A stretch of 64,000 nucleotides of DNA. It comes from Candidatus Thorarchaeota archaeon (lineage in GTDB: Archaea; Asgardarchaeota; Thorarchaeia; Thorarchaeales; Thorarchaeaceae). The stretch spans positions 1,553,249 to 1,617,248 of the forward strand of contig CP070761.1 of assembly GCA_020348985.1 (NCBI GenBank), given 5' to 3'. Of the stretch, positions 1 through 21,376 are shown piece after piece; within the stretch, counting starts at the first letter, position 1; every line of letters starts with the position of its first letter. The position numbers and the translations under genes were made by a program. The notes below the pieces were generated by a model. It was not told where the DNA came from and did no database searches. It saw only the letters and a program-made list of their open reading frames with translations.

Positions 1-1174
1 TGAACTCAGCATAGAATTCGACGGATGTCCTGTCTAGATTCTCAATATCGTCCTTCTGTGTGTGGTATAGCGGGCTAGGGAAAGACACTCCGTAGATCGT
101 GGGAACTCCGGATATCTCGAAGAACCAATGATCACTTCCATATGCGGGAGGTCCGTATTGATTCACATCGCGAGGATTCTTGATGGATTCTACCAATCCT
201 CGAGCGAATTCTTCGAGCTCAAGTGTCGAGACAATGTGATTCTGAGCGTTATATCCAATTGAATCGAGACTAAGAATCACTGCCGCTCTCGATACAATCT
301 CAGGATTGGCTCTAACATAAGCTCTCGAGCCATTAATCCAATAGTAATATGTTGTACCCCCACACTCTTCTGCACCAAAGAACAGAAATCGAACAGTCCT
401 CCTCAGTTGCCCCCCATTTTTCACGTACTCGGACATAAGTCTGGCCAACTCGAGGACGATTGCAGCAGGAGCGCCTCCATCTGCGGCGCTATGGAAATAC
501 GCATCATAGTGAGCACCAATGAATACTTCGTGAGAGGAAAGTTCTTCGCCCTCCAATGAGACCTCAAGGTTTGAAGAAGATGCATTCTCGTCCACTTCGA
601 CTTCTGTTACGATTTTGATTTCTACCTCTCCTCTCTCCATTAGATTAGATAAGAAATCAGCATCTTCCTTCGATATGCTCAGCAGAGGCAATTTCATCTC
701 AGGACCAACTTCGGTTACAACGACCTTCCTCAAATTCCCTTCATCAGGTGAAGCGACGAGGACAGCACCAAGTTTTTGCCTCTGAGCTGAAAAGCAGGTG
801 CGCGCCGGTGATAGGTACAAATGCGGACCCCACGAAGCAAGTCCAACCATGCCCTCTCTCTTCGATGGTTCTTCCTTATCCAAATGATTCAGTCTTACTA
901 GTTTGGACTCGACATCGATGGAGGGAGAGTATGGAAACAGCGCTGATGTGATCTTCTTTCTGACAGGTGAGACGATTTCAACTGCCACTGATTTTGGGTA
1001 CCACCCATATACTTGGAATGGACTCTCGATTATCTCTTTAAAACCAAAGCTTGTCAATTGCTTCTTGATAAACTGACATGCTTGTTTCTCAGCCTTGGAT
1101 CCAGCTAGGCGATACTCGATTCTGGATAGGCCTTCGATGTACTCAAGGATACGATCAGTCGACACGTTCTCCAA
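1..1174 (-). CDS. M28 family Zn-peptidase (3' end runs off the window); paralog of 2849..4657
   Basis: Not in the ORF track. Manual translation from TTG at 1174 gives LENVSTDRILEYIEGLSRIEYRLAGSKAEKQAC...FIGAHYD...DGGAPAAIVLELARL...FLFFGAEE...LSLDS...PPAYGSDHWFFEISG...FPSPLYHTQKDD, the M28 metal-ligand motifs. No signal peptide. Confidence 0.9.
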   Translation of the reverse strand, partial: MENVSTDRILEYIEGLSRIEYRLAGSKAEKQACQFIKKQLTSFGFKEIIESPFQVYGWYPKSVAVEIVSPVRKKITSALFPYSPSIDVESKLVRLNHLDKEEPSKREGMVGLASWGPHLYLSPARTCFSAQRQKLGAVLVASPDEGNLRKVVVTEVGPEMKLPLLSISKEDADFLSNLMERGEVEIKIVTEVEVDENASSSNLEVSLEGEELSSHEVFIGAHYDAYFHSAADGGAPAAIVLELARLMSEYVKNGGQLRRTVRFLFFGAEECGGTTYYYWINGSRAYVRANPEIVSRAAVILSLDSIGYNAQNHIVSTLELEEFARGLVESIKNPRDVNQYGPPAYGSDHWFFEISGVPTIYGVSFPSPLYHTQKDDIENLDRTSVEFYAEF

Positions 1175-1183
1175 TTCTCAGCC

Positions 1184-2488
1184 TCACAGTTTCTTGATGC
1201 CGGCTTCAAGGAGTGCAAAAACTTGCTGTGCCTGATCATCTGAGATGCACAACGGCGGTTGGATTCTTAGTACGTTTTTGTGGACGCCTCCGGTTCCAAC
1301 TAAAACCCCTTCGCCAAACATGTGCTCTGCAAGCGCCTGAGTCTCATCAACTGCCGGTTCTTTGGTTCCTTTGTCTTTAACAAATTCAATGCCAATCATT
1401 AGGCCCAACCCCCGGGCATCGCCCACAATCTCATACTTGTCAATCAATTCCTTCGATGACCGAAGAATCAAATCTCCAACCTTCTTCGAGTTATCTATCA
1501 GGCCCTCTTCTTGGAGGTAGTTGATATTCTCCAATGCTACCGCGCAGCAGACGGGGTTTCCTCCAAAGGTCGAGAAATGATCACCTGACTGAAGACATTG
1601 TACTATCTCATCAGTGTATATTGCTCCTCCAATGGGCATTCCTCCTCCCAATCCTTTCGCCATGGTCATAATATCCGCCTGGATGTCCCAGAGCTCATGA
1701 GCGAACATTGAACCGCATCGACCGAATCCAGTCTGCACTTCGTCAGTGATGTACAGAATTTCATGGTCTGCACATATTTGTCGGACCTTTGGATGGTAGC
1801 CTTCTGGAGGAACGATGATACCACCTTCTCCCATTACAGGTTCTACTATCATGGCAGCAACGTCGCCGGTTGTGTGGTATTTGATAACATCTTTCACTCT
1901 CCGGGCACATTCGAGTCCGCAATCTGGATATTGAAGAGGGCATCTGTAGCAATAAGGTGCGGGCGCGTGAAATACTCCTGGATAGATGGCAAAACTCCCA
2001 AAGCCCACCTTGTATTTTGCTTGACCTGTCAAGGTAAGAGAGAGTCCCAACCTACCGTGGAATGAACCTTCCAGCGCTATGACACCTGATCCTGCCTTTC
2101 CTTTCCAAACTGAATACTTCTTGGCTAGCTTCACGGCTGCCTCCACTGCCTCAGCGCCGCTGTTGCAGAAGAATACCTTTCTGAGATGCTTTGGAGAGAT
2201 TGAGGCTAGTTTCTCCGCTAGTAGCGTCTGTGGAACACTATAGTATAAGCCTGAACAATGAATGAGCTTTCCAAGCTGCTCAGCACCTGCCTCAACAAGA
2301 CGCTGAGGTGAGTGTCCTGCATTAGTTACACTAATCCCACTTAGACAATCTATGTACTCCTTCCCTTCTACATCCTTCAGAATGGCACCAGTGCCCTCTT
2401 GGATGACAACTGGTTTCCTCTTGTAAACAGCGGCCAAGTATTCGTTATCTTTAATCATAATTTCTTTCGAGCTTACCAAAGCTGACAA
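1184..2488 (-). CDS. Class III PLP aminotransferase (omega-amino acid/diamine type)
   Basis: Motifs FFCNSGAEA, GSFHGR, EPVMGEGG, DEVQTGFGR, TMAKGLGGG (PLP Lys), STFGGNP. Confidence 0.93.
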   Translation of the reverse strand: MSALVSSKEIMIKDNEYLAAVYKRKPVVIQEGTGAILKDVEGKEYIDCLSGISVTNAGHSPQRLVEAGAEQLGKLIHCSGLYYSVPQTLLAEKLASISPKHLRKVFFCNSGAEAVEAAVKLAKKYSVWKGKAGSGVIALEGSFHGRLGLSLTLTGQAKYKVGFGSFAIYPGVFHAPAPYCYRCPLQYPDCGLECARRVKDVIKYHTTGDVAAMIVEPVMGEGGIIVPPEGYHPKVRQICADHEILYITDEVQTGFGRCGSMFAHELWDIQADIMTMAKGLGGGMPIGGAIYTDEIVQCLQSGDHFSTFGGNPVCCAVALENINYLQEEGLIDNSKKVGDLILRSSKELIDKYEIVGDARGLGLMIGIEFVKDKGTKEPAVDETQALAEHMFGEGVLVGTGGVHKNVLRIQPPLCISDDQAQQVFALLEAGIKKL

Positions 2489-2547
2489 CTCCCTTTCTAT
2501 CAGTAGAGAATCAAGCTCAGTTCTCTAGAGCAACAGGGATGGCAGTA

Positions 2548-2594
2548 TGAACAATGATAAGAAAGGTCCCAACATACATGTTCAATCTTGAACA
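2548..2594 (-). promoter_or_regulatory. 47-bp operator/promoter element, copy 1 (upstream of aminotransferase-peptidase)
   Basis: Minus strand reads TGTTCA agat TGAACA tgta TGTTGG gacctttcttatcat TGTTCA; same spacing as four other copies. Confidence 0.8.
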
Positions 2595-2744
2595 CGCGAT
2601 GATTGGGACATTCCTCGAAATCGAGTTTTGTGTTGGCTGAGTCAGTCATATCATTGCTCCATTCGTCCAAGGCGGCTCCTTCATTGAAACCCGTACCACA
2701 GAAGACATGTCTATGAGACCTGCCTGAAGGAAGCGCGTGTCTAT

Positions 2745-2791
2745 TGTTCAGCGTTGAACATGTATGTTGGGACCCTTCATATCATTGTTCA
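2745..2791 (+). promoter_or_regulatory. 47-bp operator/promoter element, copy 2 (upstream of second M28 peptidase)
   Basis: TGTTCA gcgt TGAACA tgta TGTTGG gacccttcatatcat TGTTCA; 42/47 identical to the reverse complement of 2548..2594. Confidence 0.8.
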
Positions 2792-2848
2792 CACCCTGTT
2801 GGATTTGCTCTACAGATCACGCGTTGAATTCTGAGGCAATGGTCGGCT

Positions 2849-4657
2849 TTGGAGATTGGTCTGATGAATGTTGAGAAGACTTCGATTGACGAAATCCGCA
2901 AAACGGTCGAATATCTCTGCGACCTCGGTCAGAAGGTTGCTGGCACTGAACCTGAAGTTCAGGCCGCTAATTATCTGCACGAGCGTTTGAGGGAATTTGG
3001 GTTTACACATGTAGAGATGCAGTCATTCGATGTTCATGGTTGGTATCCTCTTTCCTCCTCTGTAAGAATCACTCAACCAATCCAAAAGGAGATTGAATCT
3101 GCTCTGTTCCCACACTGCAAGTCTGAGGAAGTAGAGGGACGTCTTGTGGCTTTCAAGAAGGATGCTGATCCCACATTGTCTCGAAAAGGACTCATTGCCT
3201 ACTCGGAGTGGGGGCCAGATCCATACCTCAGCCCAAGAAGGACTTACTACCATGCAGTGAGACAAGGATATGACGGTCTCATTGTTGCTGCTCCTGATAA
3301 GGGTGACTTTCTCAAGGTTGTTGTACTTGCGATTGGAGGGCTGCTTGAGATACCCGTAGTCTGTATCACAAAAGAAGAAGGTGATTCTCTTTCATCTCTC
3401 ATTGAATCGGAAGAAGTCTCTGTGAACATCAAGACAGAAATCGAGACTTCAGACCAATCGCAGTCCTACAATGTAATGGCAACCCTGGAGGGTGATGGAA
3501 CAGCTGAGCATGAGGTTATAGTGGGTGCACACTACGACTCCTGGTTCCAGGGAGCAGGCGACAATTGCGCTCCTGCTGCCACAGTTCTTGAATTGGCCCG
3601 GCTATTTGGCAGACAGGCTCAGGCAGGAAGACCTCCTAGGAGAACAATCAGGTTTCTATTCTACGGCGCCGAAGAGAGCGGCACGAATGATTTCTACTTC
3701 TGGCTTAATGGGTCAAAGGCGTTTGTCAAAAGCAACCCAGAAATAGTTGCGAGGACTGCTGCTGTTCTCAGCTTGGACTCAACAGGATACACCAGCCCTG
3801 CTAAGGATTACATATACGCCACAGCCGATGTCTTTGAGTTCGCCAAATCCATTCAAGTTGAGCTTGAGCCGACTCTTGAGTTCCAGTACTTAGACCCTCC
3901 AAGTTATGGTAGCGATCATTGGTTCTTTGAACTATCGGGAATCCCTACGATCTATGGCGTGGCATTTCCAAGCCCCCTCTATCACACGCAAAAGGATGAC
4001 CCTGACCACCTTGATTTTCATGCAGTGCACTACTATGCCGAATACATGAAAGAGGCATTGTCATATCTATCTGAAGTTGAACTGCTTCCTATTGACATCT
4101 TCTTACCGTTAAAGAGGTTCGAGCAAATCTTCAAGAAGTATCAGAAGCTGGACGAGAATCCGTTTGACTTCAGTCCAATCCTGGCCAAATTGAGGGTTCT
4201 GATGAAACAGGAATCGAGTACAAGGAGACTTCTCAAAGCTGCATCCAAATCAAGTAATCCTGATACCATCTCGGAACTCAACCAGTTCCTGCTCCGGACA
4301 GCCAACAAGTACAATCAGACTATCGGCTGGATAACACGTCCTCACGAGACCTATGCTTCTAACTACTTGTGCCGACTGGAGATGATAGAAGATATCATCC
4401 ATCTCACAAACTCGGTCAAGAACCTACGCAATATACCCATCTCCAATTTCATGTCAGAAAGAGCAGCACTTTACGATAGCCAATCTGACAATGCTTACAA
4501 CTGGATCCGTATTCACGAGCCTCTTGCGAGAATAGAAGAAGAATGCACTAGGATTCGAAGGGAGATAGAAGAAGAGCTGAAGATGCTCTCATCGATGATT
4601 GACAGCATTTCTGAAGACATTGCAGGATTGACTGAAGAACAGGTATCTAGTCACTGA
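2849..4657 (+). CDS. M28 family Zn-peptidase with PA-like insert and helical C-terminal extension
   Basis: VGAHYD, GAGDN, FYGAEE, LSLDS, GSDHWFF, YHTQKDD; no signal peptide. Confidence 0.9.
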   Translation: MEIGLMNVEKTSIDEIRKTVEYLCDLGQKVAGTEPEVQAANYLHERLREFGFTHVEMQSFDVHGWYPLSSSVRITQPIQKEIESALFPHCKSEEVEGRLVAFKKDADPTLSRKGLIAYSEWGPDPYLSPRRTYYHAVRQGYDGLIVAAPDKGDFLKVVVLAIGGLLEIPVVCITKEEGDSLSSLIESEEVSVNIKTEIETSDQSQSYNVMATLEGDGTAEHEVIVGAHYDSWFQGAGDNCAPAATVLELARLFGRQAQAGRPPRRTIRFLFYGAEESGTNDFYFWLNGSKAFVKSNPEIVARTAAVLSLDSTGYTSPAKDYIYATADVFEFAKSIQVELEPTLEFQYLDPPSYGSDHWFFELSGIPTIYGVAFPSPLYHTQKDDPDHLDFHAVHYYAEYMKEALSYLSEVELLPIDIFLPLKRFEQIFKKYQKLDENPFDFSPILAKLRVLMKQESSTRRLLKAASKSSNPDTISELNQFLLRTANKYNQTIGWITRPHETYASNYLCRLEMIEDIIHLTNSVKNLRNIPISNFMSERAALYDSQSDNAYNWIRIHEPLARIEEECTRIRREIEEELKMLSSMIDSISEDIAGLTEEQVSSH

Positions 4658-4677
4658 GAATGAACAATCGAAAGGAA

Positions 4678-4724: not shown

Positions 4725-4776
4725 TTCGCGATAAATCATGTAGGACTCGAACTCAGTAACTACAGATTTATGGTAG

Positions 4777-5679
4777 GTGAATCCAAGAATGGAAAGACGT
4801 CTGGGAGTAGCGGGACTCCAGCTTGAGAAAGATCCGTTTGATAGTGACATCAACTTCAAGAAACTGGAGTACATAACTCGGAAGGTCAAGTCTACATTTC
4901 CTTGGGTTGATTTGGTCTTTACTGGAGAACTATACCTCCAGCAATATGGAAGCAGCGATTGGAAAGAGTTTGCTCAACCAATCCCGAATGACATGACAGA
5001 CAGACTGTCTGAAATTGCTCGAGACAACGAGTGCTGGTTTGTACCAGGTTCTTTTTTGGAGAAGGAGAGTGACAAGATATTCAATACCGCACTCGTCTAT
5101 GATCCAAATGGAGACATAGTAGCCAAGTATAGAAAGCTCTATCCTTGGATGCCTTTTGAGGACACAAGTTATGGCACTAGCTTTGTTACATTCGACATTC
5201 CAGGTGTAACGAGGATTGGGATTGTCATATGCTATGATTTGTGGTTTCCTGAGGTTTTCAGGACACTAGCCTGGATGGGTGCCGAGGTAATATTGCAGCC
5301 ATCCGCTACCTATACGCCAGACCGCGCAGCGGAGCTCGTTTTGACTCCAGCTCAGGCAATCATGCATCAATGCTATGTTCTAAACTCGAACGTAATCAGT
5401 GCCATGGGGGGAGGTCTATCTATCTTTGCGGACCCCGAAGGCCGAATCCTACAACAAGTTGGCACACATGAGGAGATTATGACAGAGGTCATCGACTTGG
5501 ATAGGGTTGATTGGATTCGTCAGAATGGATCGTTTGGGATAACTCCCGTGTGGAAGAGCCTAAGAGATTCTCCACTCAGAATGAAGTATCCAGTTTACGA
5601 ACGCTTTGAAGAAGGTGCGATACTCAAGAAGCTAGGGGAAATGAAGGTGCAGAAAAGCATCCGTGAATGGACGGACTAG
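4777..5679 (+). CDS. Carbon-nitrogen hydrolase (nitrilase superfamily amidase)
   Basis: Glu-Lys-Cys triad motifs FTGELY, YRKLYP, VICYDLWFPE. Confidence 0.9.
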   Translation: MNPRMERRLGVAGLQLEKDPFDSDINFKKLEYITRKVKSTFPWVDLVFTGELYLQQYGSSDWKEFAQPIPNDMTDRLSEIARDNECWFVPGSFLEKESDKIFNTALVYDPNGDIVAKYRKLYPWMPFEDTSYGTSFVTFDIPGVTRIGIVICYDLWFPEVFRTLAWMGAEVILQPSATYTPDRAAELVLTPAQAIMHQCYVLNSNVISAMGGGLSIFADPEGRILQQVGTHEEIMTEVIDLDRVDWIRQNGSFGITPVWKSLRDSPLRMKYPVYERFEEGAILKKLGEMKVQKSIREWTD

Positions 5680-5684
5680 ATATC

Positions 5685-6707
5685 ATGAGAAACCCCACTC
5701 AGCAATTCTCTACACCTCTTGGAGTATTGTTCACATTGATTCTAATTCTAATGATTCTTGTATTTCCGCAGCCCAGCACAGGTCAATCTGACCAGAGTGA
5801 CTTGACTGGTATTCAGGTGGCGTTGTATACAGGGGGTCCAACAAGTGAATCCAGCCGCGAATCTCTTTCCAGAATGTTCTCATGGATGAACGCAAGTGTC
5901 ACTGTTCTTTCAGGAAGCGCGATAAGGGAAGGTGAACTCGAGAATTTTGATCTAGTTGTCATTCCTGGAGGATATGCACCTGACTTTATAGACGACATAG
6001 GTGCACGAGGGCTTGACAAGATCAGAGATTTCACTAGTAATGGAGGATCTTTCATCGGAGTATGTGCAGGTGCATACTTCGCTTCAGATTACATAATATG
6101 GCAAGGTATACCGACCGAGTATCGACTAGACCTGTTTGATGGTGCTGCTGTTGGTGCCATTGATCAAATCGCCCCTTGGCCAAACTTCCAGATGTGTACA
6201 ATAAGCATCAACCGCAATTCAATTCGGATTGACCTCTCTTCAGAACCGGCTAACCACACGATCATGTATTTCGGGGGCCCTTATTTCCTGCCAAGTGACC
6301 CCAGTGAAATCGAGATTCTGGCAACTTATGATATCAATGATGAAGCAGCCATGATATCTTTCGAGTATGGTCAAGGTAGAGTGTTTCTATCAGGTCCTCA
6401 TCCTGAATGGGAAGAAGATTCAGACCGAGACAATGCTAGTTGGCCTGATGATTTTGACGACAATGGCTCTGAGTGGAACCTAATGCTTAGCGTGTCACTC
6501 TGGCTAACAGAGAATGTGAACAAACCAAGCATTACCGAATTTCAACTGCCACACCTAGTTGGAGTGGCTTTCTTGGTCGTGGGAGCCATCGGCACTGTCG
6601 CCATATTCATACATGTGTTGAGGAATCGTGTCGACTATAGGAATAAATTCTATCAAAGAGGTCCAGAAACGGCAGATTTGCTGATGTTCACCTTTGTCCA
6701 CTCATGA
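5685..6707 (+). CDS. Membrane-anchored BPL_N-like class I glutamine amidotransferase-fold hydrolase
   Basis: N-terminal hydrophobic signal, VIPGG, GVCAGAY (nucleophile Cys), GPHPE, C-terminal TM. Start set at ATG 5685; the ORF track opens at 5667. Confidence 0.8.
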   Translation: MRNPTQQFSTPLGVLFTLILILMILVFPQPSTGQSDQSDLTGIQVALYTGGPTSESSRESLSRMFSWMNASVTVLSGSAIREGELENFDLVVIPGGYAPDFIDDIGARGLDKIRDFTSNGGSFIGVCAGAYFASDYIIWQGIPTEYRLDLFDGAAVGAIDQIAPWPNFQMCTISINRNSIRIDLSSEPANHTIMYFGGPYFLPSDPSEIEILATYDINDEAAMISFEYGQGRVFLSGPHPEWEEDSDRDNASWPDDFDDNGSEWNLMLSVSLWLTENVNKPSITEFQLPHLVGVAFLVVGAIGTVAIFIHVLRNRVDYRNKFYQRGPETADLLMFTFVHS

Positions 6708-6741
6708 ACAAAGATGTTGGTCGCATTTTAATCGTTGTACA
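6685..6741 (+). promoter_or_regulatory. 47-bp operator/promoter element, copy 4 (6695..6741) plus one extra upstream hexamer; upstream of the ABC operon
   Basis: TGTTCA cctt TGTCCA ctca TGAACA aaga TGTTGG tcgcattttaatcgt TGTACA; 10-bp hexamer period and the same 25-bp spacer to the last hexamer. Confidence 0.75.
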
Positions 6742-6771: not shown

Positions 6772-8715
6772 GTGATACAAGTGAGAAGACCGAATAACAT
6801 CATCCCGTTCCTTCTCATTGGTCTCTTCTTGGTGTCTATGGTTGCATTTGCGCCTGAAGCCTTTGCGCAAGACGACGGCGAGGACGCCGACGTCAGCATT
6901 GTCGTAGGTATGTTCGAGCAACCGGACTTCTTGGGACCAATGATGGCAGGCACCATAGCCGCCTGGGAGTTTCTCAACTGGATGTATGACCCCCTAGTCC
7001 GCTGGGGAGACGACTGGACTATAAAACCAGGACTGGCTGAGAGCTGGGAATGGGCTGACAACGGTACGCAATTGACATTGCATCTTGTGCAGAATGCAAC
7101 ATGGCATGATGGCACTCCCTTCACTTCAGCTGACGTCAACTTCACACTCTTTACTTGGACCTGGCTAGGTTGGTGGGTTGCGCAAACTCCGCGCATCGAC
7201 CACAGGAATATCAAGACCCCTGATGACCACACAGTCATTCTTAATTTTGTTGAGAGTGGCTATGAGAACATCTATGCGTGGTCTCCGGTGTCTCCATTCT
7301 TCTACTATCGTGAGAGCTACGACGGGACTCCCGTGGAGGTTAACCAGGAGTGTTTCCTCACAGGTCTGACATATGTCCCAATCATACCCAAGCATGAATG
7401 GGATCCCCTCATGTGGCATCACCCTGTTTGGGGACTGGAAGGTTCTGGATATGGTGTTACTCTAGAGAATGGCACCTGGGTATACTATGGATACTGGGAC
7501 TATCTCAATTGGGATGGAATCTCTTGGGGCACAATTCTACCTCCATATAACAGATCTGATATCGGAACTGGTCCATTCATCCTGAAGGAATACGAGGTGG
7601 GCGAATACGCGTATTTCGAGGGTAATGATGACTATCACTGGGGTGCACCTAATATCGACAACTTGACCGTCCTATTCTACACCTCAATCGAAACCATGAC
7701 ACAGGCCGTCAAGGCGGGTGAAATTGATTTCTGTGAGACCACCGCCAATTTCCTTGAGACTGGAGAATTTGGCCCTGAAGTGACTGTCAACGAGCAAAGC
7801 TCACTAGGCTGGGAAGCCTTGTTGATCAATCAGGATTGGATATACGCCAATACTAGTGATGCGTTTGCATTGAGGGAACCTGCAGTCAAGGTGGCAATCA
7901 ATCAAGCAGTCAACAAGTCGAACATAGCCAACATCGCTTATCTCGGACATGCCGTGCCTGCGGACTCTGTGATTCACAGTAAGCTGTATAAATGGTTCAA
8001 TGATGAGCTTGTGACACGCGATGTTGGAATCAGCGAGGCAGAAGCCACTCTCGAGGCTGATGGATGGACTCTGAACACTGAAGGAGTCTATGAAAAGACG
8101 CTAAACGGATCTGTGAAGACACTTGAGTTTACTCTCAAATTCATCACAGGCTCTCCGATTGATCTTAGCATAGCACAGCTAATTGAGGCTAACCTCGAAG
8201 ATGCCGGCTTTGACATAACGCTTCAGGCATTGGACGTCTCTACCTTCACAGCAGACCTATTCGCGTACTCCTTTGACCTAGCGATCTCGTTCTGGTCTCA
8301 AATCGGAGATCCGAACAGCATGGCACAATACATGACTTCAACCAGCTGGATCAACCCGACTGGACTTAACATCCCGAGAGTCGATGAAATCTTCTATGAG
8401 CAGCAGCTCGCTACGGACCTCTTCGAAAGACAGGATCTCATTAATGAGATGCAGCAACTTGTCTATGATGAAGCCAGCATTTGTGTCCTTGTTGAATATG
8501 ATGACATTGAACTCTACAGAAATGACCGATTTGTGTTCACACACACAGATTGGTTGAGCGGCATCCTGTCCATGTGGAACTGGGAATCCTGGCTTGGAGC
8601 CGAGCAAGTAGCACCGCCATCATTTCCAATTTCGATGGAGCTGGCAATTATCGCTGGGGCAGGAGTCATCGTTGTAGTGGTGCTCTTCGTGGTTTGGAGG
8701 TCGAAGAAGGGATAG
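6772..8715 (+). CDS. Peptide/nickel ABC transporter substrate-binding protein (family 5), C-terminally anchored
   Basis: Signal peptide, PGLAESWE, WHDGTPFTSADV, GTGPF, C-terminal TM followed by RSKKG. Confidence 0.92.
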   Translation: MIQVRRPNNIIPFLLIGLFLVSMVAFAPEAFAQDDGEDADVSIVVGMFEQPDFLGPMMAGTIAAWEFLNWMYDPLVRWGDDWTIKPGLAESWEWADNGTQLTLHLVQNATWHDGTPFTSADVNFTLFTWTWLGWWVAQTPRIDHRNIKTPDDHTVILNFVESGYENIYAWSPVSPFFYYRESYDGTPVEVNQECFLTGLTYVPIIPKHEWDPLMWHHPVWGLEGSGYGVTLENGTWVYYGYWDYLNWDGISWGTILPPYNRSDIGTGPFILKEYEVGEYAYFEGNDDYHWGAPNIDNLTVLFYTSIETMTQAVKAGEIDFCETTANFLETGEFGPEVTVNEQSSLGWEALLINQDWIYANTSDAFALREPAVKVAINQAVNKSNIANIAYLGHAVPADSVIHSKLYKWFNDELVTRDVGISEAEATLEADGWTLNTEGVYEKTLNGSVKTLEFTLKFITGSPIDLSIAQLIEANLEDAGFDITLQALDVSTFTADLFAYSFDLAISFWSQIGDPNSMAQYMTSTSWINPTGLNIPRVDEIFYEQQLATDLFERQDLINEMQQLVYDEASICVLVEYDDIELYRNDRFVFTHTDWLSGILSMWNWESWLGAEQVAPPSFPISMELAIIAGAGVIVVVVLFVVWRSKKG

Positions 8716-8734
8716 CAGTCTAAACAGCAGAAGA

Positions 8735-8778
8735 AGAACAGACAGTATTATCTGTCTGTTCTATCTATTCTTTTTCTT
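8735..8778 (+). terminator. Stem-loop after the SBP gene (partial terminator or mRNA stabiliser)
   Basis: Perfect 11-bp stem AGAACAGACAG-tattat-CTGTCTGTTCT (8735..8762) followed by a T-rich tract. Confidence 0.6.
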
Positions 8779-8813
8779 GTGAAGGTTGTCACGTATAGTT
8801 GAGATGACACAAA

Positions 8814-11546: not shown

Positions 11547-11551
11547 GCAAC

Positions 11552-13524: not shown

Positions 13525-14658
13525 CTACTTGCTGGGGTACTTGCGTCCAACCTCTCGCGCTTTCGTGAAATGCAATACTGCCGATGCCACACCCTCTTCC
13601 CTGGATATCTCCTCTATCTTTTCGAGGGCTAGGAGTGATCTGAGTAATTTCATGGAAAGGTCCTTCATAGGAGCCGTCCTACTTCTGATTTGAACACGCA
13701 TCATATCTCCGTCGGCAGAGACATTGGACCATTCCCAAAGCCCTAGTGTTCCAATCACTGAGACTGTGCGGTCTACTAGATTGGAGACACTAGACGTGTC
13801 CTTCTCACCATTGATGACGTCGAGTTGTTGTGCATGCTCTCTGATGCTAACAAGCGTCTTGTCACTAATCGGATCCTCTATCGTGTTGGTGACAAGCCAA
13901 TCTAGAAGAGAAGGACTTAGTGTGACGACACCTCGATGACCTGTCTGTGAAGAAAGCCGCTCTCTTCGGTCTCGCCACAACGTGATGACACGTCTGTCTC
14001 TTTCAATCTTCACCTGATTGTACTCATTCTGGTGGATCCACGTGACACTTATCTTGTTGTCAGCTACGATCTCTACATCAAAAGTGAACCCAGCTTCCTC
14101 CCATCCTGCAATCAGCATTATGACAAGTAGCTCAGGTAGCCCCTGAAACATACCTGTTGTGAGGAGAAGTCTCTTCCTCTCGGATGAACATTCAACTGAC
14201 CTAAGGACTCCAACATCTCTAAGGAAGTTCGCATTGGCAACAAGCGATTCGTAATTGTTCTCCCAGAACTCCTCTGGAATTACACCCACACTCATGAGCA
14301 GCTTGGTTTGCTCAATCCCAATCTTCTTGGCCTCCAATGTTAAGTCTCTAACGGAATGGGTGCCTAGACCGCAGCCAGCGCACAGCGATAATAGATTTGA
14401 GCTGACTAGTATCATGTCAGCGGATTGAATGAGGGAATTGTGTAGGCGTGATGTCTTGATGGCATCGCACTCTTCACAATTGGGGAGATCTCTTCTTGTG
14501 CTGTAATGCTTCACAGCTTCTTCAAGAACATCATTGATGCGTCTCGAGTCACTTGAGAGTTCCTTCAAAAGATTCTTGGTGCTGGCGGAGACTGTAGTAT
14601 GTAGATGCACTCTCGGTTCACGAGACCCATTATAGTCATGTGAGTCCATAACATCCAT
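13525..14658 (-). CDS. Putative transcriptional regulator: N-terminal ribbon-helix-helix-like domain, CxxC, two repeated putative sensor domains
   Basis: RVHLHTTV-SASTKNLLKELS-RRINDVLEEAVKHY fits a beta-alpha-alpha RHH pattern. Start set at ATG 14658 (14649 is an alternative) because the upstream ORF extension overlaps motif hexamers. Confidence 0.6.
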   Translation of the reverse strand: MDVMDSHDYNGSREPRVHLHTTVSASTKNLLKELSSDSRRINDVLEEAVKHYSTRRDLPNCEECDAIKTSRLHNSLIQSADMILVSSNLLSLCAGCGLGTHSVRDLTLEAKKIGIEQTKLLMSVGVIPEEFWENNYESLVANANFLRDVGVLRSVECSSERKRLLLTTGMFQGLPELLVIMLIAGWEEAGFTFDVEIVADNKISVTWIHQNEYNQVKIERDRRVITLWRDRRERLSSQTGHRGVVTLSPSLLDWLVTNTIEDPISDKTLVSIREHAQQLDVINGEKDTSSVSNLVDRTVSVIGTLGLWEWSNVSADGDMMRVQIRSRTAPMKDLSMKLLRSLLALEKIEEISREEGVASAVLHFTKAREVGRKYPSK

Positions 14659-14797
14659 GAACAAACCCACCGGTTCGTGTTCAAGACATCTATTCCAGTT
14701 ATAGATTCGTGAACATAAGCATTCCGAAGCAGTGAGGTTTGTTGAATCTTTGAACAAGGTCATGACGAAGTGTCTTTCTCATGTGCACCCTTGTTCA
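14658..14797 (-). promoter_or_regulatory. Cluster of TGWWCA-type hexamers upstream of the candidate regulator
   Basis: Hexamers start at 14658, 14678, 14710, 14751, 14782 (TGTGCA) and 14792. 14710/14751/14792 are 41 bp apart, the first-to-last hexamer spacing of the 47-bp element. Confidence 0.6.
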
Positions 14798-16417
14798 TTC
14801 GTGAAGGTGGTCGCCCATGAGAGTCCCACGAATGAAGAATTTCTCAAATTCACCGTATGAGGCTAATTCTACATATCGAGCAGAATCCGCAATTTCTTCT
14901 GCTATCTCCCTATGAGCTATTGACAACAGCATCTTCTTTGCACCGTCTCCGGCTGCGTTGCCAACTTGAACAACACGATTCGGATCAATGGCGGGCAAGA
15001 GTCCAATGGAGACTGCGCTTTCGGGATTGATGTATGTCCCAAATGCTCCAGCTAGATAGACAGCGTCGATTTCCGTCAATGCAACATCTGCCTCTCTAAT
15101 GAGGATGTGAGTGCCTGCTAGGATTGCGCTCTTGGCAAGTTGGACTTGACGAACATCCTTTTGCGTGAACAATATTCGAGACTCAGAGTCATGCTCCCCC
15201 TTCTCGACAAGGACATAGGACGCCACCGACGGACCTACATGAATGATTCGATTCGACTCCTGCAATCTTCCGTCTTCGTCAAGCAAGCTATGCTTGAGTA
15301 GTTCTGAGACAATATCTACTATTCCCGATCCGCATATTCCTCTGGGTACACCGCCGCCGATTACTTCAATCTCGGCAGGCTGAGAAGGATCATCGATTGT
15401 AACATGTTCAATCGCACCTTCCTGACCTCTCATTCCCTGAGATATCGTAGCCCCTTCGAATGCAGATCCGGCTGCAGCTGAACAGCAAAAGAGCTCACCG
15501 TATTTGGACAACACAATCTCACCATTGGTTCCAATATCAGCACCGAGAACAACATCTTCAGACTGGTCGAGCCTCTGCGAAAGAATGAACGCTACGGTGT
15601 CCCCTCCCACAAATCCAGCGATATTCGGTGAGCAATAGACTTGGGCGGCCGAAACTTGGCCAAGCCCAACAACCTTTGAATCGGCGTTGAATGAATGTTT
15701 CATTGCTGGTTCATATGGGGCAAAGCCTAATGACGAAGTGTCTATTCCCAAGAATAGGTGATGCATTGCTGTGTTACCAACTACGGAGATTCGGCCAACT
15801 GCTTCAGAGGAAACCTGGCCTGCTTCGCATACTTCCTTAATCAGTCCGTCGATCGCTTGAACGACCAAGGACTGAAGACTGGCTGCACCCTCATCATTCT
15901 GTAAGGCATGAGTGATTCTTGTGACTACGTCCTCACCATATTCAATTTGAGGGTTGAGCATAGAAGCGCATCCAATCTGTGCCCCGTCCTTCAAGCCAAG
16001 AAGATAGGCAACAATAGTAGTAGTGCCAAGGTCAATGGCAACGCCATATTCACCGTCGATGGGCGCGTCAATAGCAATCTCATCGGTTGTGATTAGATGT
16101 TCAGCAAGAATCTTACTTCGACCTTCAACACGTGTCAGAATCGCTCTACAATGGGCCTTTGCTGTGTGTTCACAAGCAAGACGAACTCCGCGTCTGATAT
16201 CTTCGCCTTTGAGGTGAAGCGAGTCGATCTTGGTCGGCGATGGTTTGGGCTTAAGTATGATTCTACACTTGCCACATGTTCCTTTGCCTCCGCACTCAGC
16301 CGGTATATGCAAACCCATTCTTCTTGCTGCCTCTAGAAAAGAAGTATTGGAGTCCAAAAGGATTCGTAGCCCTGAAGGCTCGAATACTACTAACCACCTC
16401 TCTTCCAAGAATGTCAC
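14795..16417 (-). CDS. ATP-dependent reductive activator of corrinoid proteins (RACo/DUF4445 ASKHA type with N-terminal 2Fe-2S)
   Basis: CGGKGTCGKC...RLAC ferredoxin domain; DLGTTT, NPQIEYGEDV, GFVGGD, DIGTNGE, AFEG, GICGSG, LAGAFG, GNAAG. Confidence 0.9.
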   Translation of the reverse strand: MTFLEERWLVVFEPSGLRILLDSNTSFLEAARRMGLHIPAECGGKGTCGKCRIILKPKPSPTKIDSLHLKGEDIRRGVRLACEHTAKAHCRAILTRVEGRSKILAEHLITTDEIAIDAPIDGEYGVAIDLGTTTIVAYLLGLKDGAQIGCASMLNPQIEYGEDVVTRITHALQNDEGAASLQSLVVQAIDGLIKEVCEAGQVSSEAVGRISVVGNTAMHHLFLGIDTSSLGFAPYEPAMKHSFNADSKVVGLGQVSAAQVYCSPNIAGFVGGDTVAFILSQRLDQSEDVVLGADIGTNGEIVLSKYGELFCCSAAAGSAFEGATISQGMRGQEGAIEHVTIDDPSQPAEIEVIGGGVPRGICGSGIVDIVSELLKHSLLDEDGRLQESNRIIHVGPSVASYVLVEKGEHDSESRILFTQKDVRQVQLAKSAILAGTHILIREADVALTEIDAVYLAGAFGTYINPESAVSIGLLPAIDPNRVVQVGNAAGDGAKKMLLSIAHREIAEEIADSARYVELASYGEFEKFFIRGTLMGDHLHE

Positions 16418-17323
16418 CTAACTTATCCTGTAACGAGGATGTGTCTTGTCAATGGGGGTTCGAGTTTCAAGCAAAATACCCGATAGCGCTACATCAATCA
16501 TTGCAATAGACGGGTAGACAATTGGTGCATCTTGTACCGGGCCGTACAGGACAAAGTCAGCCCCTAAGACAACAGGCATCAGATTGGATCCGACGAAAGC
16601 AGGCTTTTTCGCTTCATCTCCAAACTTCGGAACCAACCCCCTCCAAGTACTAACAGCATTGTGTGCGCCGCAGCCAACAGGGTATCCTTGTTTTTCTTTG
16701 ATAGTTTGTAGTGCTTTACAAGCTAGGCCTAGAGTGAGTAGGTCTGCAACACCTGTGTCGATGAGCAAGTTTGTGAAACCAGAATTCTTTGCTTTTTTTA
16801 TTAGGGAATCAGCCAATTCAACTCTCTTCGTGGCTGATGCCATGGCTTCTGACGAGAAAGTGAGAAGCACTACATTCTTGAGGCCAGTATCCTGGAACCG
16901 GGAATAGACTTCGCCTGAAGATTCAGGAGTCAGGGAATTCAAAACCACTCTATGAAGAAGACCAGCATCGCTTGCAGCATTCACACCGGCAAGATTGACT
17001 GCTGTTTGGTCTGATCCATCAATCATGAGTGGAGAATCTGTCATGTCGGCTAGCAATCGGATGTATCTGTCGGCTGCCTCTGGAGATATCGCAACGACAT
17101 CTAACATGCTGGGCAATCCGGTCTTTTCAGAAGTCTCCTCCAAATTCTGGAGGACATCCTCTGTTCCCGCTACATCAATTCTGCCCGATTTGGGATCTAA
17201 AACGAGTCTGTCACCTGTGTAGAAAATTGACCCTACTAGGACTGTGGGATTGACACCAGGTTGTCCACCTATCTTTACTCCACCGATTTCAAGTATCTTT
17301 TGTTCGACTTGATATTCGAACAA
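16418..17323 (-). CDS. mtrH: MtrH-like methyl-corrinoid:tetrahydropterin methyltransferase
   Basis: IGGQPG-NPTVLVGSIFY, LIDTGV, GCGAHNA, GADFVLYGP. TTG start at 17323 follows GGAGGTG (ORF track start 17362). No other mtr subunits nearby. Confidence 0.85.
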   Translation of the reverse strand: MFEYQVEQKILEIGGVKIGGQPGVNPTVLVGSIFYTGDRLVLDPKSGRIDVAGTEDVLQNLEETSEKTGLPSMLDVVAISPEAADRYIRLLADMTDSPLMIDGSDQTAVNLAGVNAASDAGLLHRVVLNSLTPESSGEVYSRFQDTGLKNVVLLTFSSEAMASATKRVELADSLIKKAKNSGFTNLLIDTGVADLLTLGLACKALQTIKEKQGYPVGCGAHNAVSTWRGLVPKFGDEAKKPAFVGSNLMPVVLGADFVLYGPVQDAPIVYPSIAMIDVALSGILLETRTPIDKTHPRYRIS

Positions 17324-17372
17324 GGGTCTCACCTCCAATAATGAGCGTCGACGCGACCCCACGTTAGATTGA

Positions 17373-18752
17373 TTAATAGAGGAATCTCACACCGAGGTCC
17401 GCAACCTCTTGCTTCACTCTTTCATATATCTCGTAGCACTCCTTTGAAGGTCTACCGGTCACAGGATCACAGCACTCTTGGAACGTTTTGCCCCTTGGTG
17501 GGTCACCAACCCTGTCAGCAAATCTCGGGATGATTCTCTTTACAATCTCGTTTGCATCATCCCTTGTGATACCAGCAGACGCGTAGGCAACCTCCGAGGC
17601 GAACATTGGCTCAATTGGTGTCAGATAATCTGTGTACTTCCCTCTGGCAACGCCTCCGGTCTCAATTGACCCTCCTGAAGATATTCCGCCAATGAATTCT
17701 GCAGCAAACTCGTAAAGCACCATCTCGGTACAGGGGCCCGCAGCAGTGTAGTTGTAATATAGCGCTGGCACCTGTGTATTCCTTGACACAGCCTGCAGGT
17801 ATTGGCTGGCCACCCAGATTAGCTCTGGTGTGGAACTTGAGGTATACTTGAGGTGGATCGGGAAGCACAGTGTCCAGGATGCGCCAAGGGTCATTATTGC
17901 CATTATGTGAAAAGCCGTGGACGTGATTGCTGTTCCTTCTGCTCCCCCTGCAAAGCCACCATAGATGGGACCATGAATCCCTGCGATTGGAACATTCAGT
18001 GATTGTAGAAGTGCTGCACGATTCAGCAAATCAAAATCTGTCTTTAGCTCAGCAAGCTGAGCAATCATGTATCCGTCTGTCTTCCGTAGTCCAAAATCGG
18101 GATGCAAACCTGAAGCAAGGGCGATAGCGGACTCTGCGGTCCCAATAGCATTCATGATGGGTAGTCCAGGTCGCCCAGCTCTTCTCAAAGCCTCCCGCCC
18201 CAGAACCACAGTTCGTATACTACCCTCGATTTCGAGTGGTGATTTCGCACGAATGCTCATATCGCCGACATTAGCCAGGCAGGGAGTGGTAATCGCGTTT
18301 GCAATCGGTATCAGTTCTGCATAGTTTTGAACAAGTTTCATGAACACGTTCTCACTAGACACAGTTACCCCCCCGGCCCCTGCGAAAATCCATGGTTTCT
18401 CCTTTGACTCTGGCTTCCTTGGTAGCAGAGTTCGTTGTTCCATACCCTCGCCCAGAAGTGCATGGTCAAAGGATGTGTTGATGCTGTCACGAACCTCCTT
18501 CTCTGTGAACGAGATTACTCGTTCAGTGTCCTTGTTGAATACTCCGATCTCGACGATAAGGTCAAAAGCTGCTTTGAATACTGAATCTGCTAGCCCGTCA
18601 TCAGAGGAAATCACGATGTTAGGATCGTACGTGACATCATATTCTTTAACAAGCTCTTGGACTCGCGGAGCAAAGATTCGCAAATCGTAGTCCTTTTCCA
18701 AGCAGGGCTTTCCTTCAAGAGACCTTCGAGTAATCTCCAGTATGTTCAGCAT
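17373..18752 (-). CDS. mtmB: Monomethylamine methyltransferase MtmB family, pyrrolysine-free homolog
   Basis: DDGLADSVFKA, DTERVISF, AGRPG, ELKTD, PIYGGFAGG, AGPCTEM, GKTFQECCD; uninterrupted 459-aa ORF. Confidence 0.88.
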   Translation of the reverse strand: MLNILEITRRSLEGKPCLEKDYDLRIFAPRVQELVKEYDVTYDPNIVISSDDGLADSVFKAAFDLIVEIGVFNKDTERVISFTEKEVRDSINTSFDHALLGEGMEQRTLLPRKPESKEKPWIFAGAGGVTVSSENVFMKLVQNYAELIPIANAITTPCLANVGDMSIRAKSPLEIEGSIRTVVLGREALRRAGRPGLPIMNAIGTAESAIALASGLHPDFGLRKTDGYMIAQLAELKTDFDLLNRAALLQSLNVPIAGIHGPIYGGFAGGAEGTAITSTAFHIMAIMTLGASWTLCFPIHLKYTSSSTPELIWVASQYLQAVSRNTQVPALYYNYTAAGPCTEMVLYEFAAEFIGGISSGGSIETGGVARGKYTDYLTPIEPMFASEVAYASAGITRDDANEIVKRIIPRFADRVGDPPRGKTFQECCDPVTGRPSKECYEIYERVKQEVADLGVRFLY

Positions 18753-18756
18753 TCAC

Positions 18757-19404: not shown

Positions 19405-19443
19405 GTTCCTGACATCCATCGAGATAATGAGTAGACATCTGGA

Positions 19444-19490
19444 TGAACAGACACAAAAGCACTCCCAACACCTGTGAACACTCTTGAACA
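19444..19490 (-). promoter_or_regulatory. 47-bp operator/promoter element, copy 5 (upstream of the methyltransferase operon)
   Basis: Minus strand reads TGTTCA agag TGTTCA cagg TGTTGG gagtgcttttgtgtc TGTTCA. Confidence 0.8.
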
Positions 19491-19540
19491 AACTCGTTCT
19501 TCAAGAGTGCAATGTAATCCACAGTGAGTGTTAAATCGGA

Positions 19541-21376
19541 TTACCTAATATCCTTCAATCCGAGTCTCTCGACGGTTTCATCTGTGGGAATTCCATTCTT
19601 GTCCCAGCCGCGCAGCTCATAGAATCTGTCAAGACAGGCCTCAAAATCCGCTCTATCAACGAAAGAACGCATTCCCTCAGCAGGGCCAGAAGCAACTGGC
19701 TGCCAGAATCGTGGAGGGAGTTCATCATCCTTTCTTGAGACACCTTCTCTTACGTTGAATAGCCGAGTAAGGGTCTCTACTCTCTCTGCAAAGACCTTCA
19801 CACTTTCCTCATCGTATTCAAGTCCTGTGGCACCATTAAGCAAGCGAATCTTCTGATTATGGCTTAGAGGCAAGTGGTACGTAAAATGACATACAACAAG
19901 TGAATCTGTCAAGTGTTTCTCGTCCCTAGCCTTTGTCATGGATTCGACCACATCTATCGCTGACGAAATCGGCTTGTCAGTTGTTGATGGCCAACCTCTA
20001 AGGTGACTTGCACCTACTTCAGCAGTTGCATAGGAAAGACCCATCCCCTTCTTTCCTCGAGGGTCCCAAGCAGCCACAGATAGTCCCTTTACATGGACGG
20101 CAAGCTCTTCACTGCCTTTCCCAATTCTTTCAGCTGCTCTCCTCACACCGTTGGCCAAAATGTCACCAATGCCTTCTCTTCCGGCAATCATCTGGAGCAG
20201 TTCCATTGCCGCCGCACCATCGCCGAATCTCATGGAAAAGCCAAGATCATCTTCCGTTATGATGCCCCTTTCGAATGCCTCCATCGCAAACGCCAGAACT
20301 GAACCTGCCGCTATTGTGTCGATGCCGAGATCATCGCAAAGGTGATTGAGTTGGAGAAGGATATACGGATCGCTTATCCCCAGATTGCCACTCAACATAG
20401 CCTCAGTTTCATATTCGGAAGTTACCTCCACAGCCATCTTTGGAGCTCTCGGATCAGCTACCCTGTGAGCATGCGTACACCTCATTATGCACTGGGGACA
20501 TGACAAGTGCTGACCAGAATACCATTCATGCATAGCTTCAGGTTGCACCTTCTCGTTCTCTTCGAAAAAGCTTGTCTGCCAATTTCGTGTGGGAAACTGG
20601 CCACGTTCGTTGGAGACCTCAATAAGAAAAGATGTTCCATACCTCCTGAAGTCAAAATTCCATGCATCAGTGGCCATATCCTTCCATGAAGTAGTCACTT
20701 CACGATTGACTTCACTGATTGCATCGGAATCATATGCTTCAATCATACCAGAACCTCTGACCACAACTGCTTTGAGATTCTTTGACCCCATCACAGCTCC
20801 AGGACCACCTCGGCCTGTTTGATGAGCGAGTTCGGAGCCGGCCGCAGCAATCAGCGACAGATTCTCCCCTGCTGGACCTATGACATACACTATGTGATCG
20901 TCACCAAATCGCTCGCGTAGAATCCTGGTTGAATCGTGAATCCCTCTGCCCCAAAGGTCTTCTGCACTCTCTAGACGCAGAGAGTCATCTTCAAGAACAA
21001 GCACAGTAGGCTTGTCTGCCTTGCCTTTGACGCACAATACATCGTAGCCTGATTTCTTTATTTCCCTTCCCAGGGCGTGTCCACAATGTGAATCTAGGTA
21101 GAGCCCCGTGAGAGGTGACTTGGTCACTAACGTCCACCTGGCTACGCTAGGACCATTTAGCCCTTGCATAGGTCCTGTGAGGAAGAACAGAACATTCTCT
21201 GGCCTAAGGGGGTCGACTCCTGCTTCCAGTTCTCTATACAGTAGGTATGCTCCAAGTCCCTTTCCGCCCAGGAATTGCTCGTAGACACTTGTATCAAGGC
21301 TCTCCTCATTTGTGGATCCTGTTGACAAATCAACCCAAAGGATTTTGCCAGTCCAACATTCATGTGTCATGTCCAA
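19541..21376 (-). CDS. aor: Tungsten-dependent aldehyde:ferredoxin oxidoreductase family protein
   Basis: LGGKGLG, KSPLTG, IGPAGEN, GRGGPGAVMGSKNLKA, CPQCIMRC, EYET, CDDLGIDT, DPRG. Confidence 0.92.
   Translation of the reverse strand: MDMTHECWTGKILWVDLSTGSTNEESLDTSVYEQFLGGKGLGAYLLYRELEAGVDPLRPENVLFFLTGPMQGLNGPSVARWTLVTKSPLTGLYLDSHCGHALGREIKKSGYDVLCVKGKADKPTVLVLEDDSLRLESAEDLWGRGIHDSTRILRERFGDDHIVYVIGPAGENLSLIAAAGSELAHQTGRGGPGAVMGSKNLKAVVVRGSGMIEAYDSDAISEVNREVTTSWKDMATDAWNFDFRRYGTSFLIEVSNERGQFPTRNWQTSFFEENEKVQPEAMHEWYSGQHLSCPQCIMRCTHAHRVADPRAPKMAVEVTSEYETEAMLSGNLGISDPYILLQLNHLCDDLGIDTIAAGSVLAFAMEAFERGIITEDDLGFSMRFGDGAAAMELLQMIAGREGIGDILANGVRRAAERIGKGSEELAVHVKGLSVAAWDPRGKKGMGLSYATAEVGASHLRGWPSTTDKPISSAIDVVESMTKARDEKHLTDSLVVCHFTYHLPLSHNQKIRLLNGATGLEYDEESVKVFAERVETLTRLFNVREGVSRKDDELPPRFWQPVASGPAEGMRSFVDRADFEACLDRFYELRGWDKNGIPTDETVERLGLKDIR

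Follow-up and report, generated by a model that had tools for sequence, protein, structure and literature searches.

The window analysed here is the whole of a 64,000-nucleotide stretch from a Candidatus Thorarchaeota archaeon (G000:C1:1553249-1617248; the genome comprises 3.16 Mb in one contig, with a marker completeness of 86%). The public loci closest to it belong to metagenome-assembled genomes with Thorarchaeota or Hermodarchaeota labels, which places the organism among the Asgard archaea. Its left part carries genes for amidohydrolases, an aminotransferase, a peptide-type importer, a putative regulator and a corrinoid-dependent methyl-transfer chain, and a 47-bp element precedes five of its transcription units, in four exact copies and one degenerate copy. 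This locus is a genuine co-regulated catabolic regulon, and it very probably represents one catabolic system. An earlier reading of the letters alone (the sequence-only reading) had proposed that genes sharing a motif import, hydrolyse, demethylate and deaminate N-methylated amino acids, peptides or amines. All gene families named there were recovered by the Pfam and NCBIfam scans on which our assignments are based, and the shared motif is real, being the 47-bp element. The gene list was right in content and needs extending: the left M28 peptidase gene is clipped by the window edge and an M20 deacylase gene lies beyond that edge, so that the locus reaches about 2 kb past coordinate 1, and the regulator gene is a member that had not been listed. 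Features of the locus are as follows (positions in the window, unless given as genome coordinates).

G000 1551271-1552572, left of the window, after the 590-aa M28 gene: M20 ArgE/DapE-family deacylase (TIGR01910, 285.6 bits vs a cut-off of 217.6)
1-1174, minus strand: M28 peptidase paralogue (PF04389), cut at the window edge; the full gene encodes 590 aa
1184-2488, minus strand: class-III (omega) aminotransferase family protein (PF00202, 5.8e-114), first gene of the aminotransferase-M28-M20 operon
2548-2594, minus strand: 47-bp element, exact, before the aminotransferase operon
2745-2791, plus strand: 47-bp element, exact, before the 602-aa M28 gene; mirror copy of the element at 2548-2594 (inverted repeat I2)
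2849-4657, plus strand: cytoplasmic M28 peptidase of the PA-domain type (PF04389, 6.3e-33), a 602-aa open reading frame (ORF); a protein-atlas record places the start at residue 6, giving 2864-4657 and about 597 aa
4678-4724, plus strand: 47-bp element, exact, before the CN-hydrolase and surface-hydrolase genes
4777-5679, plus strand: CN-hydrolase, a nitrilase-superfamily amidase (PF00795, 1.7e-32, 113.2 bits)
5667-6707, plus strand: surface-anchored class-I glutamine-amidotransferase-like hydrolase of the GATase1/BPL_N type (PF09825), with signal peptide and C-terminal membrane anchor
6695-6741, plus strand: 47-bp element, degenerate (4 mismatches), before the binding-protein gene
6772-8715, plus strand: SBP_bac_5 binding protein (Pfam), with signal peptide and anchor
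8814-11546, plus strand: fused DppB-DppC permease, 910 aa (Pfam)
11552-12511 and 12511-13524, plus strand: two oligo_HPY ATPases (Pfam)
13525-14658, minus strand: putative regulator, 377 aa, with a ribbon-helix-helix (RHH)-like N-terminus (RVHLHTT..), an invariant CxxC and two alpha/beta domains
14710-14797, no strand assigned: three TGWWCA hexamers spaced 41 bp, upstream of the regulator gene
14795-16417, minus strand: RACo/RamA-type corrinoid reductive activase with an N-terminal 2Fe-2S domain (PF14574, PF17651, PF00111), AcsV-like
16418-17362, minus strand: MtrH/MtgA-type methylcorrinoid:pterin methyltransferase (PF02007, 2.3e-69, 234 bits)
17373-18752, minus strand: pyrrolysine (Pyl)-free MtmB homologue, a substrate:corrinoid methyltransferase (PF05369, 4.5e-95, 319.5 bits vs a cut-off of 25)
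18757-~19419, minus strand: cognate B12-binding corrinoid protein (PF02310, PF02607; TIGR02370, 216.8 vs a cut-off of 215.3)
19444-19490, minus strand: 47-bp element, exact, before the corrinoid-MtmB-MtrH-RACo operon
19541-21376, minus strand: aldehyde:ferredoxin oxidoreductase (AOR; PF01314, PF02730), adjacent gene, membership not shown

The 47-bp element, its conservation and the putative regulator

The element has the form TGTTCA-N4-TGNNCA-N4-TGTTGGGA-N13-TGTTCA, and no further copy was found in the 3.16-Mb genome at up to 5 mismatches. For a shorter form of the pattern, 0.03 matches are expected from shuffled sequences, as against the 4 found. A looser pattern, TGWWCA-N35-TGWWCA, occurs at 10 genomic sites, six of them within the locus. 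Two of the six overlap and lie upstream of the regulator gene; the three hexamers at 14710-14797 are possibly an autoregulatory site. Within the element, TGTT-type repeats begin at positions 1, 11, 21 and 42, which places them on a single helical face, and they flank an A/T-rich stretch at the place expected for an archaeal TATA box. Such an arrangement would fit an operator that overlaps the core promoter.

Comparison with relatives, based on GTDB species genomes, showed the genes to be co-regulated and syntenic, a check that had been set beforehand as a possible refutation of the sequence-only reading and that this reading has passed. In genera g11, g12 and g16 of the same family, the genes for the aminotransferase, M28 peptidase, amidotransferase-like surface hydrolase, binding protein, permease and ATPases, corrinoid protein, MtmB and regulator are syntenic, while g9 and g13 carry the core locus without the corrinoid and MtmB genes; the regulator is present in g9 and was not found in g13. 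Gene order and orientation vary among genera, and the element (with 0-3 mismatches) stays before the same units. It precedes the corrinoid gene in all relatives examined, and degenerate copies also stand before the binding-protein gene in four of the relatives' loci (L022, L031, L032, L033). In the whole genomes of five relatives, 13 copies were detected and 13/13 lie in the regulon locus, with none for a reversed-pattern control.

The core set thus delimited consists of the class-III aminotransferase, two M28 peptidases of about 600 aa, the M20 deacylase, often the CN-hydrolase, the surface hydrolase, the Dpp-type importer and the regulator. The corrinoid-MtmB pair, which has a copy of the element to itself, is a separate unit, found in most carriers and absent from at least one. 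Of 85 family genomes, 16 have an MtmB orthologue (at least 70% identity). MtmB, the binding protein and the regulator are all missing from the two further genomes of the source genus, and the regulon is therefore an accessory trait. One closed relative genome (G368, 2.58 Mb; loci L020 and L034) has the regulon split within the second ATPase gene, with residues 1-103 encoded at 2.09 Mb and residues 92-328 at 0.707 Mb, so that the halves are 1.39 Mb apart; its regulator gene contains in-frame TGA and TAG codons, which suggests that this copy is rearranged and decaying.

The putative regulator has no Pfam or NCBIfam match. Its family comprises 30 clusters in 5.8 billion proteins, none functionally named, and all clusters named by organism come from Thorarchaeota- or Promethearchaeota-labelled Asgard metagenome-assembled genomes (MAGs). 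It is present in the 16 family genomes that have an MtmB orthologue, in one further genome (G334) and, as a weak N-terminal match, in G312. Its gene adjoins MtmB in 15 of the 16 genomes; in the exception (G358) 41 bp separate it from an MtmB match that is truncated. The AlphaFold2 (AF2) model has a predicted local confidence (pLDDT) of 76; the RVHLHTT segment is invariant and is followed by helices at residues 25-34 and 41-54, with a pLDDT below 70 in the strand region. Foldseek returned nothing below E 1e-3 for this model. By VIA-align, domain 1 has middling matches to H-NOX, Bet3 and BcsD-like folds (Z 6.3-7.4) and domain 2 has generic ferredoxin-like ones; a V4R-like reading was considered and not established.

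Taken together, the locus provides a rare archaeal case in which an operator, a putative regulator and a regulon are conserved as a triple across genera.

Hydrolases, importer and aminotransferase

The sequence-only reading had assigned a surface cysteine hydrolase, and the Cys-His-Glu triad and triad-glutaminase fold of this protein bear the assignment out. GVCAGA, with the cysteine, and GPHPE, with the H-P-E residues, are conserved in nine orthologues and in nearly all of 62 remote homologues, among which His204 and Glu206 are almost invariant. The AF2 model (pLDDT 95) has as its top Foldseek matches the triad glutaminases Pdx2, HisH and PurQ as well as gamma-glutamyl peptidase 1, with E values of 1e-9 to 1e-10 and target-normalised TM scores of 0.74-0.83 for Pdx2 and HisH. 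The protein thus shows the nucleophile-elbow cysteine, the His-x-Glu pair and the fold that define class-I triad amidotransferases. Orthologues have a Ser/Thr-rich stalk, and the wider family consists of secreted proteins, some with type IX secretion tails or dockerins; a literature search on secreted BPL_N-type enzymes gave nothing useful. The modelled fold and its relatives point to an enzyme that would cut a gamma-glutamyl or similar amide bond outside the cell.

The remaining hydrolases of the regulon are cytoplasmic by topology, and the left M28 protein has no hydrophobic segment. The 602-aa M28 protein is closest, among solved structures, to an aminopeptidase (2ek8) and more distantly related to glutamate carboxypeptidase II (GCPII); a protein-atlas search with it returned only uncharacterised clusters of PA-domain M28 proteins. 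For the CN-hydrolase the nearest solved structure is the Nit2 omega-amidase, and a by-eye reading of its sequence gives Glu51, Lys120 and Cys152 as the triad. C26-like, GCPII-like and CPG2-like families each include folate hydrolases that release glutamate. Salvage of folate or pterin polyglutamates was considered for this set of enzymes and set aside, as nothing beyond family resemblance was found for it. The aminotransferase has its nearest solved structure in an archaeal class-III enzyme from P. horikoshii (7vno).

The importer, encoded at 6772-13524 on the plus strand, is of the Dpp/Opp/Nik (PepT) type, as had been proposed, with an SBP_bac_5 protein, two BPD_transp_1 permease domains and two oligo_HPY ATPases. 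The DppB-like and DppC-like halves of the permease are joined by a long hydrophobic linker region, and the fusion is kept in all orthologous loci. Against solved binding proteins, the binding protein gives weak and mixed matches, to NikA and to peptide binders, which do not discriminate between ligands. The best NCBIfam and PDB matches of this protein and of the first permease half are to nickel or opine-metallophore systems, and these raise the question of whether the locus might encode a NikA/CntA-like importer for nickel, cobalt or a metallophore that feeds corrinoid or nickel enzymes, with the hydrolases and the aminotransferase recycling the chelator and MtmB linked through cobalt supply. 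We regard this as very improbable. All of these matches score far below the cut-offs of their families (for NikA, 142.8 bits against 393), at levels similar to those for peptide binders. To our knowledge, known Nik and Cnt loci hold nothing like the extracellular triad amidohydrolase and four cytoplasmic amidohydrolases found here, and an accessory regulon that is missing in two genus-mates would be an odd means of basic metal supply.

The methyl-transfer module and the proposed pathway

All parts of a full corrinoid methyl-transfer chain, as postulated in the sequence-only reading, are present in the locus of the source genome, where they form the operon corrinoid-MtmB-MtrH-RACo. The MtmB homologue, the single copy in this genome, has a frame with no in-frame stop and aligns with MtmB of M. 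barkeri (1l2q) over residues 9-457 (HMMER alignment, E 1.1e-67). Pyl202 of the M. barkeri enzyme is aligned to Met200, which is followed by a 4-residue insertion; Glu229 and Glu259 align to Met and Ile, and Glu205 to Glu, these being glutamates near the Pyl residue. Among 113 homologues with at least 45% identity, the 40 commonest motif variants, accounting for 75/113, read GRPGLPIMN or a near variant in which the methionine is always kept. Homologues named by organism include Asgard, Bathyarchaeia and Thermoplasmatota MAGs. The pairing of the Pyl-free homologue with an adjacent cognate corrinoid protein was confirmed; DxHxxG lies at residue 129 of the long corrinoid ORF, and the gene probably starts at Met25, downstream of the element. 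Among non-Pyl MtmB proteins only MtqB has been characterised; its substrates are tetramethylammonium and choline, with a small activity on monomethylamine, and non-Pyl MtmB homologues in Asgard archaea were mentioned in the same study (PMC13044021).

The MtrH-like protein scores 277.5 bits with an NCBIfam subfamily model of the MtrH family (cut-off 287) and 193 bits (E 6.5e-57) with the MtgA model (cut-off 550). It is one of four paralogues in the source genome, the three others being located at 0.472 Mb and 2.52 Mb. Adjacency of MtrH and RACo to MtmB is found in the source genome only, and at three sites in relatives (L037, L038, L039) the MtrH orthologue belongs to a conserved MtrH-RACo-corrinoid trio elsewhere in the genome. 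MtmB and the corrinoid protein form a unit under control of the operator. MtrH and RACo are a general module that lies elsewhere in relatives, which weakens this part of the earlier proposal.

Further MtmB-like genes were seen in other contexts. A relative (G372; L023, C37) has a second MtmB paralogue, 65% identical, with a corrinoid gene and without the 47-bp element, among genes for a LIV-type ABC importer, a creatinase/prolidase-like M24 protein, DUF3830, a luciferase-like oxidoreductase, a CN-hydrolase and an M20 protein; this cluster may serve a sister pathway that acts on a different methylated amino compound. A Bathyarchaeia homologue adjoins an APC amino-acid permease. On gene neighbourhood, the recurrence of amino-acid-type importers and amidohydrolases beside MtmB weakly favours a methylated amino-acid-like donor. 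The source genome also has a single MttB-family gene (G000:C1:3048942-3050339), which is an open frame without a stop and therefore Pyl-free.

For the destination of the methyl group, the sequence-only reading had asked that mcr be lacking and one-carbon (C1) pterin enzymes be present. McrA was not found in the source genome, and the best PylS_Cterm match there reaches 20.5 bits against a cut-off of 178. Mch, Mer, CdhC (acetyl-CoA synthase, ACS) and formyltetrahydrofolate synthetase (FTHFS) are present, so that non-methanogenic methyl entry into the methyl branch of the Wood-Ljungdahl pathway is feasible. As enzymes of both tetrahydromethanopterin (H4MPT; Mch, Mer) and tetrahydrofolate (H4F; FTHFS) occur, the methyl group could enter either pterin branch.

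The sequence-only reading continued further: methyl-lysine or an N-methyl polyamine would be demethylated fully, the resulting primary amine transaminated to an aldehyde, and the aldehyde oxidised by the adjacent AOR. A class-III aminotransferase is indeed a conserved member of the regulon and AOR is adjacent in the source genome. AOR and MtmB occurred together at only one further site, in a different family of Asgard archaea (L028 on G001:C3), where two AOR homologues are scattered among a corrinoid gene, a RACo-like gene and two distantly related MtmB paralogues. However, the AOR gene of the window is one of nine paralogues in the genome, no copy of the element lies in its promoter region (21377-21723), as the sequence-only reading had stated, and AOR is absent from the orthologous loci of all relatives. 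As to the demethylation itself, tertiary, secondary and primary methylamines are demethylated by Pyl enzymes, and we know of no precedent for a single Pyl-free enzyme that removes methyl groups one after another until a primary amine is left. In this genome MtmB is present once and no Pyl system was found. MtqB acts mainly on quaternary amines and has only trace activity with monomethylamine (PMC13044021). The sequence from full demethylation through transamination to AOR oxidation is the weakest part of the earlier scheme and is unsupported, the substrate classes it named (methyl-lysine peptides, N-methyl/acyl polyamines) are guesses, and we consider the scheme as a whole improbable. Next to AOR and divergent from it lies a gene (21724-23697, plus strand) whose 657-aa product has 12 or more hydrophobic segments, matches no Pfam family and may be an uncharacterised transporter.

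We favour a reading, to which we assign a probability of about 0.6, in which an extracellular amide-linked compound is imported and hydrolysed stepwise, a methyl group is taken by the Pyl-free MtmB system, and the substrate is an N-methylated amino compound; this would be a lineage-specific system of Thorarchaeota-type Asgard archaea under a single regulator. We infer the following order of steps. The anchored triad glutaminase-like enzyme would first act outside the cell, where it would cut a gamma-glutamyl bond or another side-chain amide bond, and the product would be imported by the anchored binding protein and the Dpp-type ABC system. In the cytoplasm, the two M28 peptidases, the ArgE/DapE-type M20 enzyme and, often, the CN-hydrolase would strip off peptide or N-acyl parts. 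The Pyl-free MtmB would then methylate the corrinoid protein, which RACo would maintain in the active Co(I) state; the methyl donated is most likely a quaternary N-methyl or one activated in some other way. From the corrinoid protein, the MtrH-like enzyme would hand the methyl group to H4MPT or H4F for the Wood-Ljungdahl pathway. The class-III aminotransferase would act on an amino group of the carbon skeleton. Control would be exerted by the RHH-type regulator, binding the four in-phase TGTTCA-like repeats that flank the TATA-like stretch, probably as a repressor released by the substrate. More specifically, the clade with Met in place of Pyl, which is widespread in uncultivated archaea, might use a class of substrate new to corrinoid methyltransferases, an N-methylated or N-trimethylated amino acid that enters as a gamma-glutamyl or N-acyl conjugate and is set free intracellularly, a suggestion that we make tentatively.

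Several observations weigh against the favoured reading. The nearest solved relatives of the binding protein are NikA-type nickel or metallophore binders as much as peptide binders, and all of them score weakly. The class-III family comprises amino-acid racemases in addition to GABA (gamma-aminobutyrate), ornithine and putrescine aminotransferases, which weakens the assignment of an aminotransferase. For the regulator, the model is poor in the RHH strand and the fold comparisons gave weak matches. MtrH-RACo orthologues of relatives sit elsewhere, next to a different corrinoid gene, and occur in 50 of 86 family genomes (G000 included), compared with 16 of 85 relatives for MtmB. Finally, one relative (G334, 85% complete) has the regulator, ATPases, permease, binding protein, surface hydrolase, aminotransferase, M28 peptidase and CN-hydrolase without the corrinoid protein and MtmB; MtmB was not found in it, and the pair is missing from the slot that it occupies in other genomes. 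The hydrolytic and import core can therefore exist without demethylation, which is an add-on to an amide-catabolic core and not its centre. The genes beside the G334 regulator were inspected as possible replacements for MtmB and are unrelated (a metallo-beta-lactamase-fold hydrolase, a ketopantoate hydroxymethyltransferase and a P-type ATPase).

These last findings lead to the main rival explanation, which separates two functions. The core would degrade a gamma-glutamyl or N-acyl amino compound without methyl groups, for instance small peptides or murein- or osmolyte-type amides, and the corrinoid-MtmB unit would be a later insertion for a separate small quaternary amine, for example choline, that shares only the regulator or the location. 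Apart from the constitution of G334, this explanation gains from the fact that corrinoid-MtmB is in every case preceded by an element of its own, which makes it a separate transcription unit, and from distant MtmB homologues (35-38% identical) in Bathyarchaeia that lack these neighbours; more closely related homologues also occur in that group. The known substrates of non-Pyl MtmB are, moreover, free quaternary amines and choline (PMC13044021). We nevertheless think it rather unlikely, as in every genome examined the two parts share the same private operator, and MtmB, not the hydrolases, is what the regulator gene adjoins. The locus contains no betaine/choline-type transporter, and the second MtmB paralogue of G372 is likewise found among an amino-acid ABC importer and amidohydrolases. 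A gene for a glycerophosphodiester phosphodiesterase (23813-24565, minus strand), 2.4 kb from the locus, was considered as a member that could in principle set choline free from glycerophosphocholine, and was rejected, being without the element and absent from the loci of relatives. Harvest of a methyl group from the imported compound is plausible.

Comparison with known systems

Genomes of Asgard archaea, Bathyarchaeia and Thermoplasmatota commonly encode Pyl-free MtmB homologues, whose function has been demonstrated, in 2026, for MtqB alone. The regulon provides a conserved context for the Asgard forms, with a binding protein, a surface hydrolase, amidohydrolases and a putative regulator with a defined operator, all of which can be used to find the methyl donor. 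If our reading is true, some Asgard archaea obtain C1 units from complex methylated nitrogen compounds and not from free methylamines, and would compete with methylotrophic methanogens for the precursors of sediment methane. Should the new substrate class be real as well, Thorarchaeia would, controlled by a private RHH/sensor regulator, link the scavenging of necromass or osmolytes directly to the entry of methyl groups into the Wood-Ljungdahl pathway.

The Puu pathway of E. coli for the catabolism of gamma-glutamyl amines, a comparison that serves as a lead only, likewise combines a cysteine hydrolase of the class-I-amidotransferase fold (PuuD, C26) with a class-III aminotransferase (PuuE), and PuuE is among the solved relatives of the aminotransferase described here. 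The two differ in that the hydrolase is extracellular in our case and the locus is without a gamma-glutamyl ligase, an oxidase and an aldehyde dehydrogenase.

The MtgB/MtgC/MtgA systems of the MttB superfamily, which act on glycine betaine, proline betaine and carnitine, share the overall logic: in non-methanogens, they supply the Wood-Ljungdahl pathway by way of a methyltransferase without Pyl, a corrinoid protein and a methylcorrinoid:pterin methyltransferase (an MtrH-like protein in the present case), together with a RamA/RACo activase. Their first methyltransferase is of the MttB family, whereas that of the regulon belongs to the MtmB family. MtgB-type systems are usually tied to betaine-type transporters, in place of which the regulon has a Dpp-type importer and surface and cytoplasmic amidohydrolases.

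Non-methanogenic methylotrophy was predicted earlier for Sifarchaeia and Jordarchaeia (PMC9723677) and for Atabeyarchaeia and Freyarchaeia (PMC11291895). Those are Mcr-free Asgard archaea that resemble the present one in having methyltransferase and corrinoid genes, MtrH homologues and Wood-Ljungdahl enzymes, and a methylated substrate was proposed for them. Both studies list the methyltransferases; a term search of the two papers found, in the portions covered, no mention of this regulon, its operator and regulator, or a link to a peptide-type importer and amidohydrolases. Methylotrophy in Mcr-free Asgard archaea has been predicted before, and what is new here, as far as those portions go, is the regulon, its operator, the putative regulator and the link to a peptide-type importer.

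The MtqB/MtqC system of Methanococcoides methylutens, a tetramethylammonium/choline:corrinoid methyltransferase, likewise has a Pyl-free member of the MtmB family that is paired with its own corrinoid protein next to it (PMC13044021). In that methanogen the methyl group passes to coenzyme M via MtbA (PMC13044021), whereas in the Thorarchaeota genome the partner is MtrH-like, no Mcr was found and a pterin would be the expected acceptor. For MtqBC, no peptide-type importer, peptidases or dedicated RHH regulator were described (PMC13044021), while the regulon presented here has a peptide-type importer, peptidases and a putative regulator with an RHH-like N-terminus.

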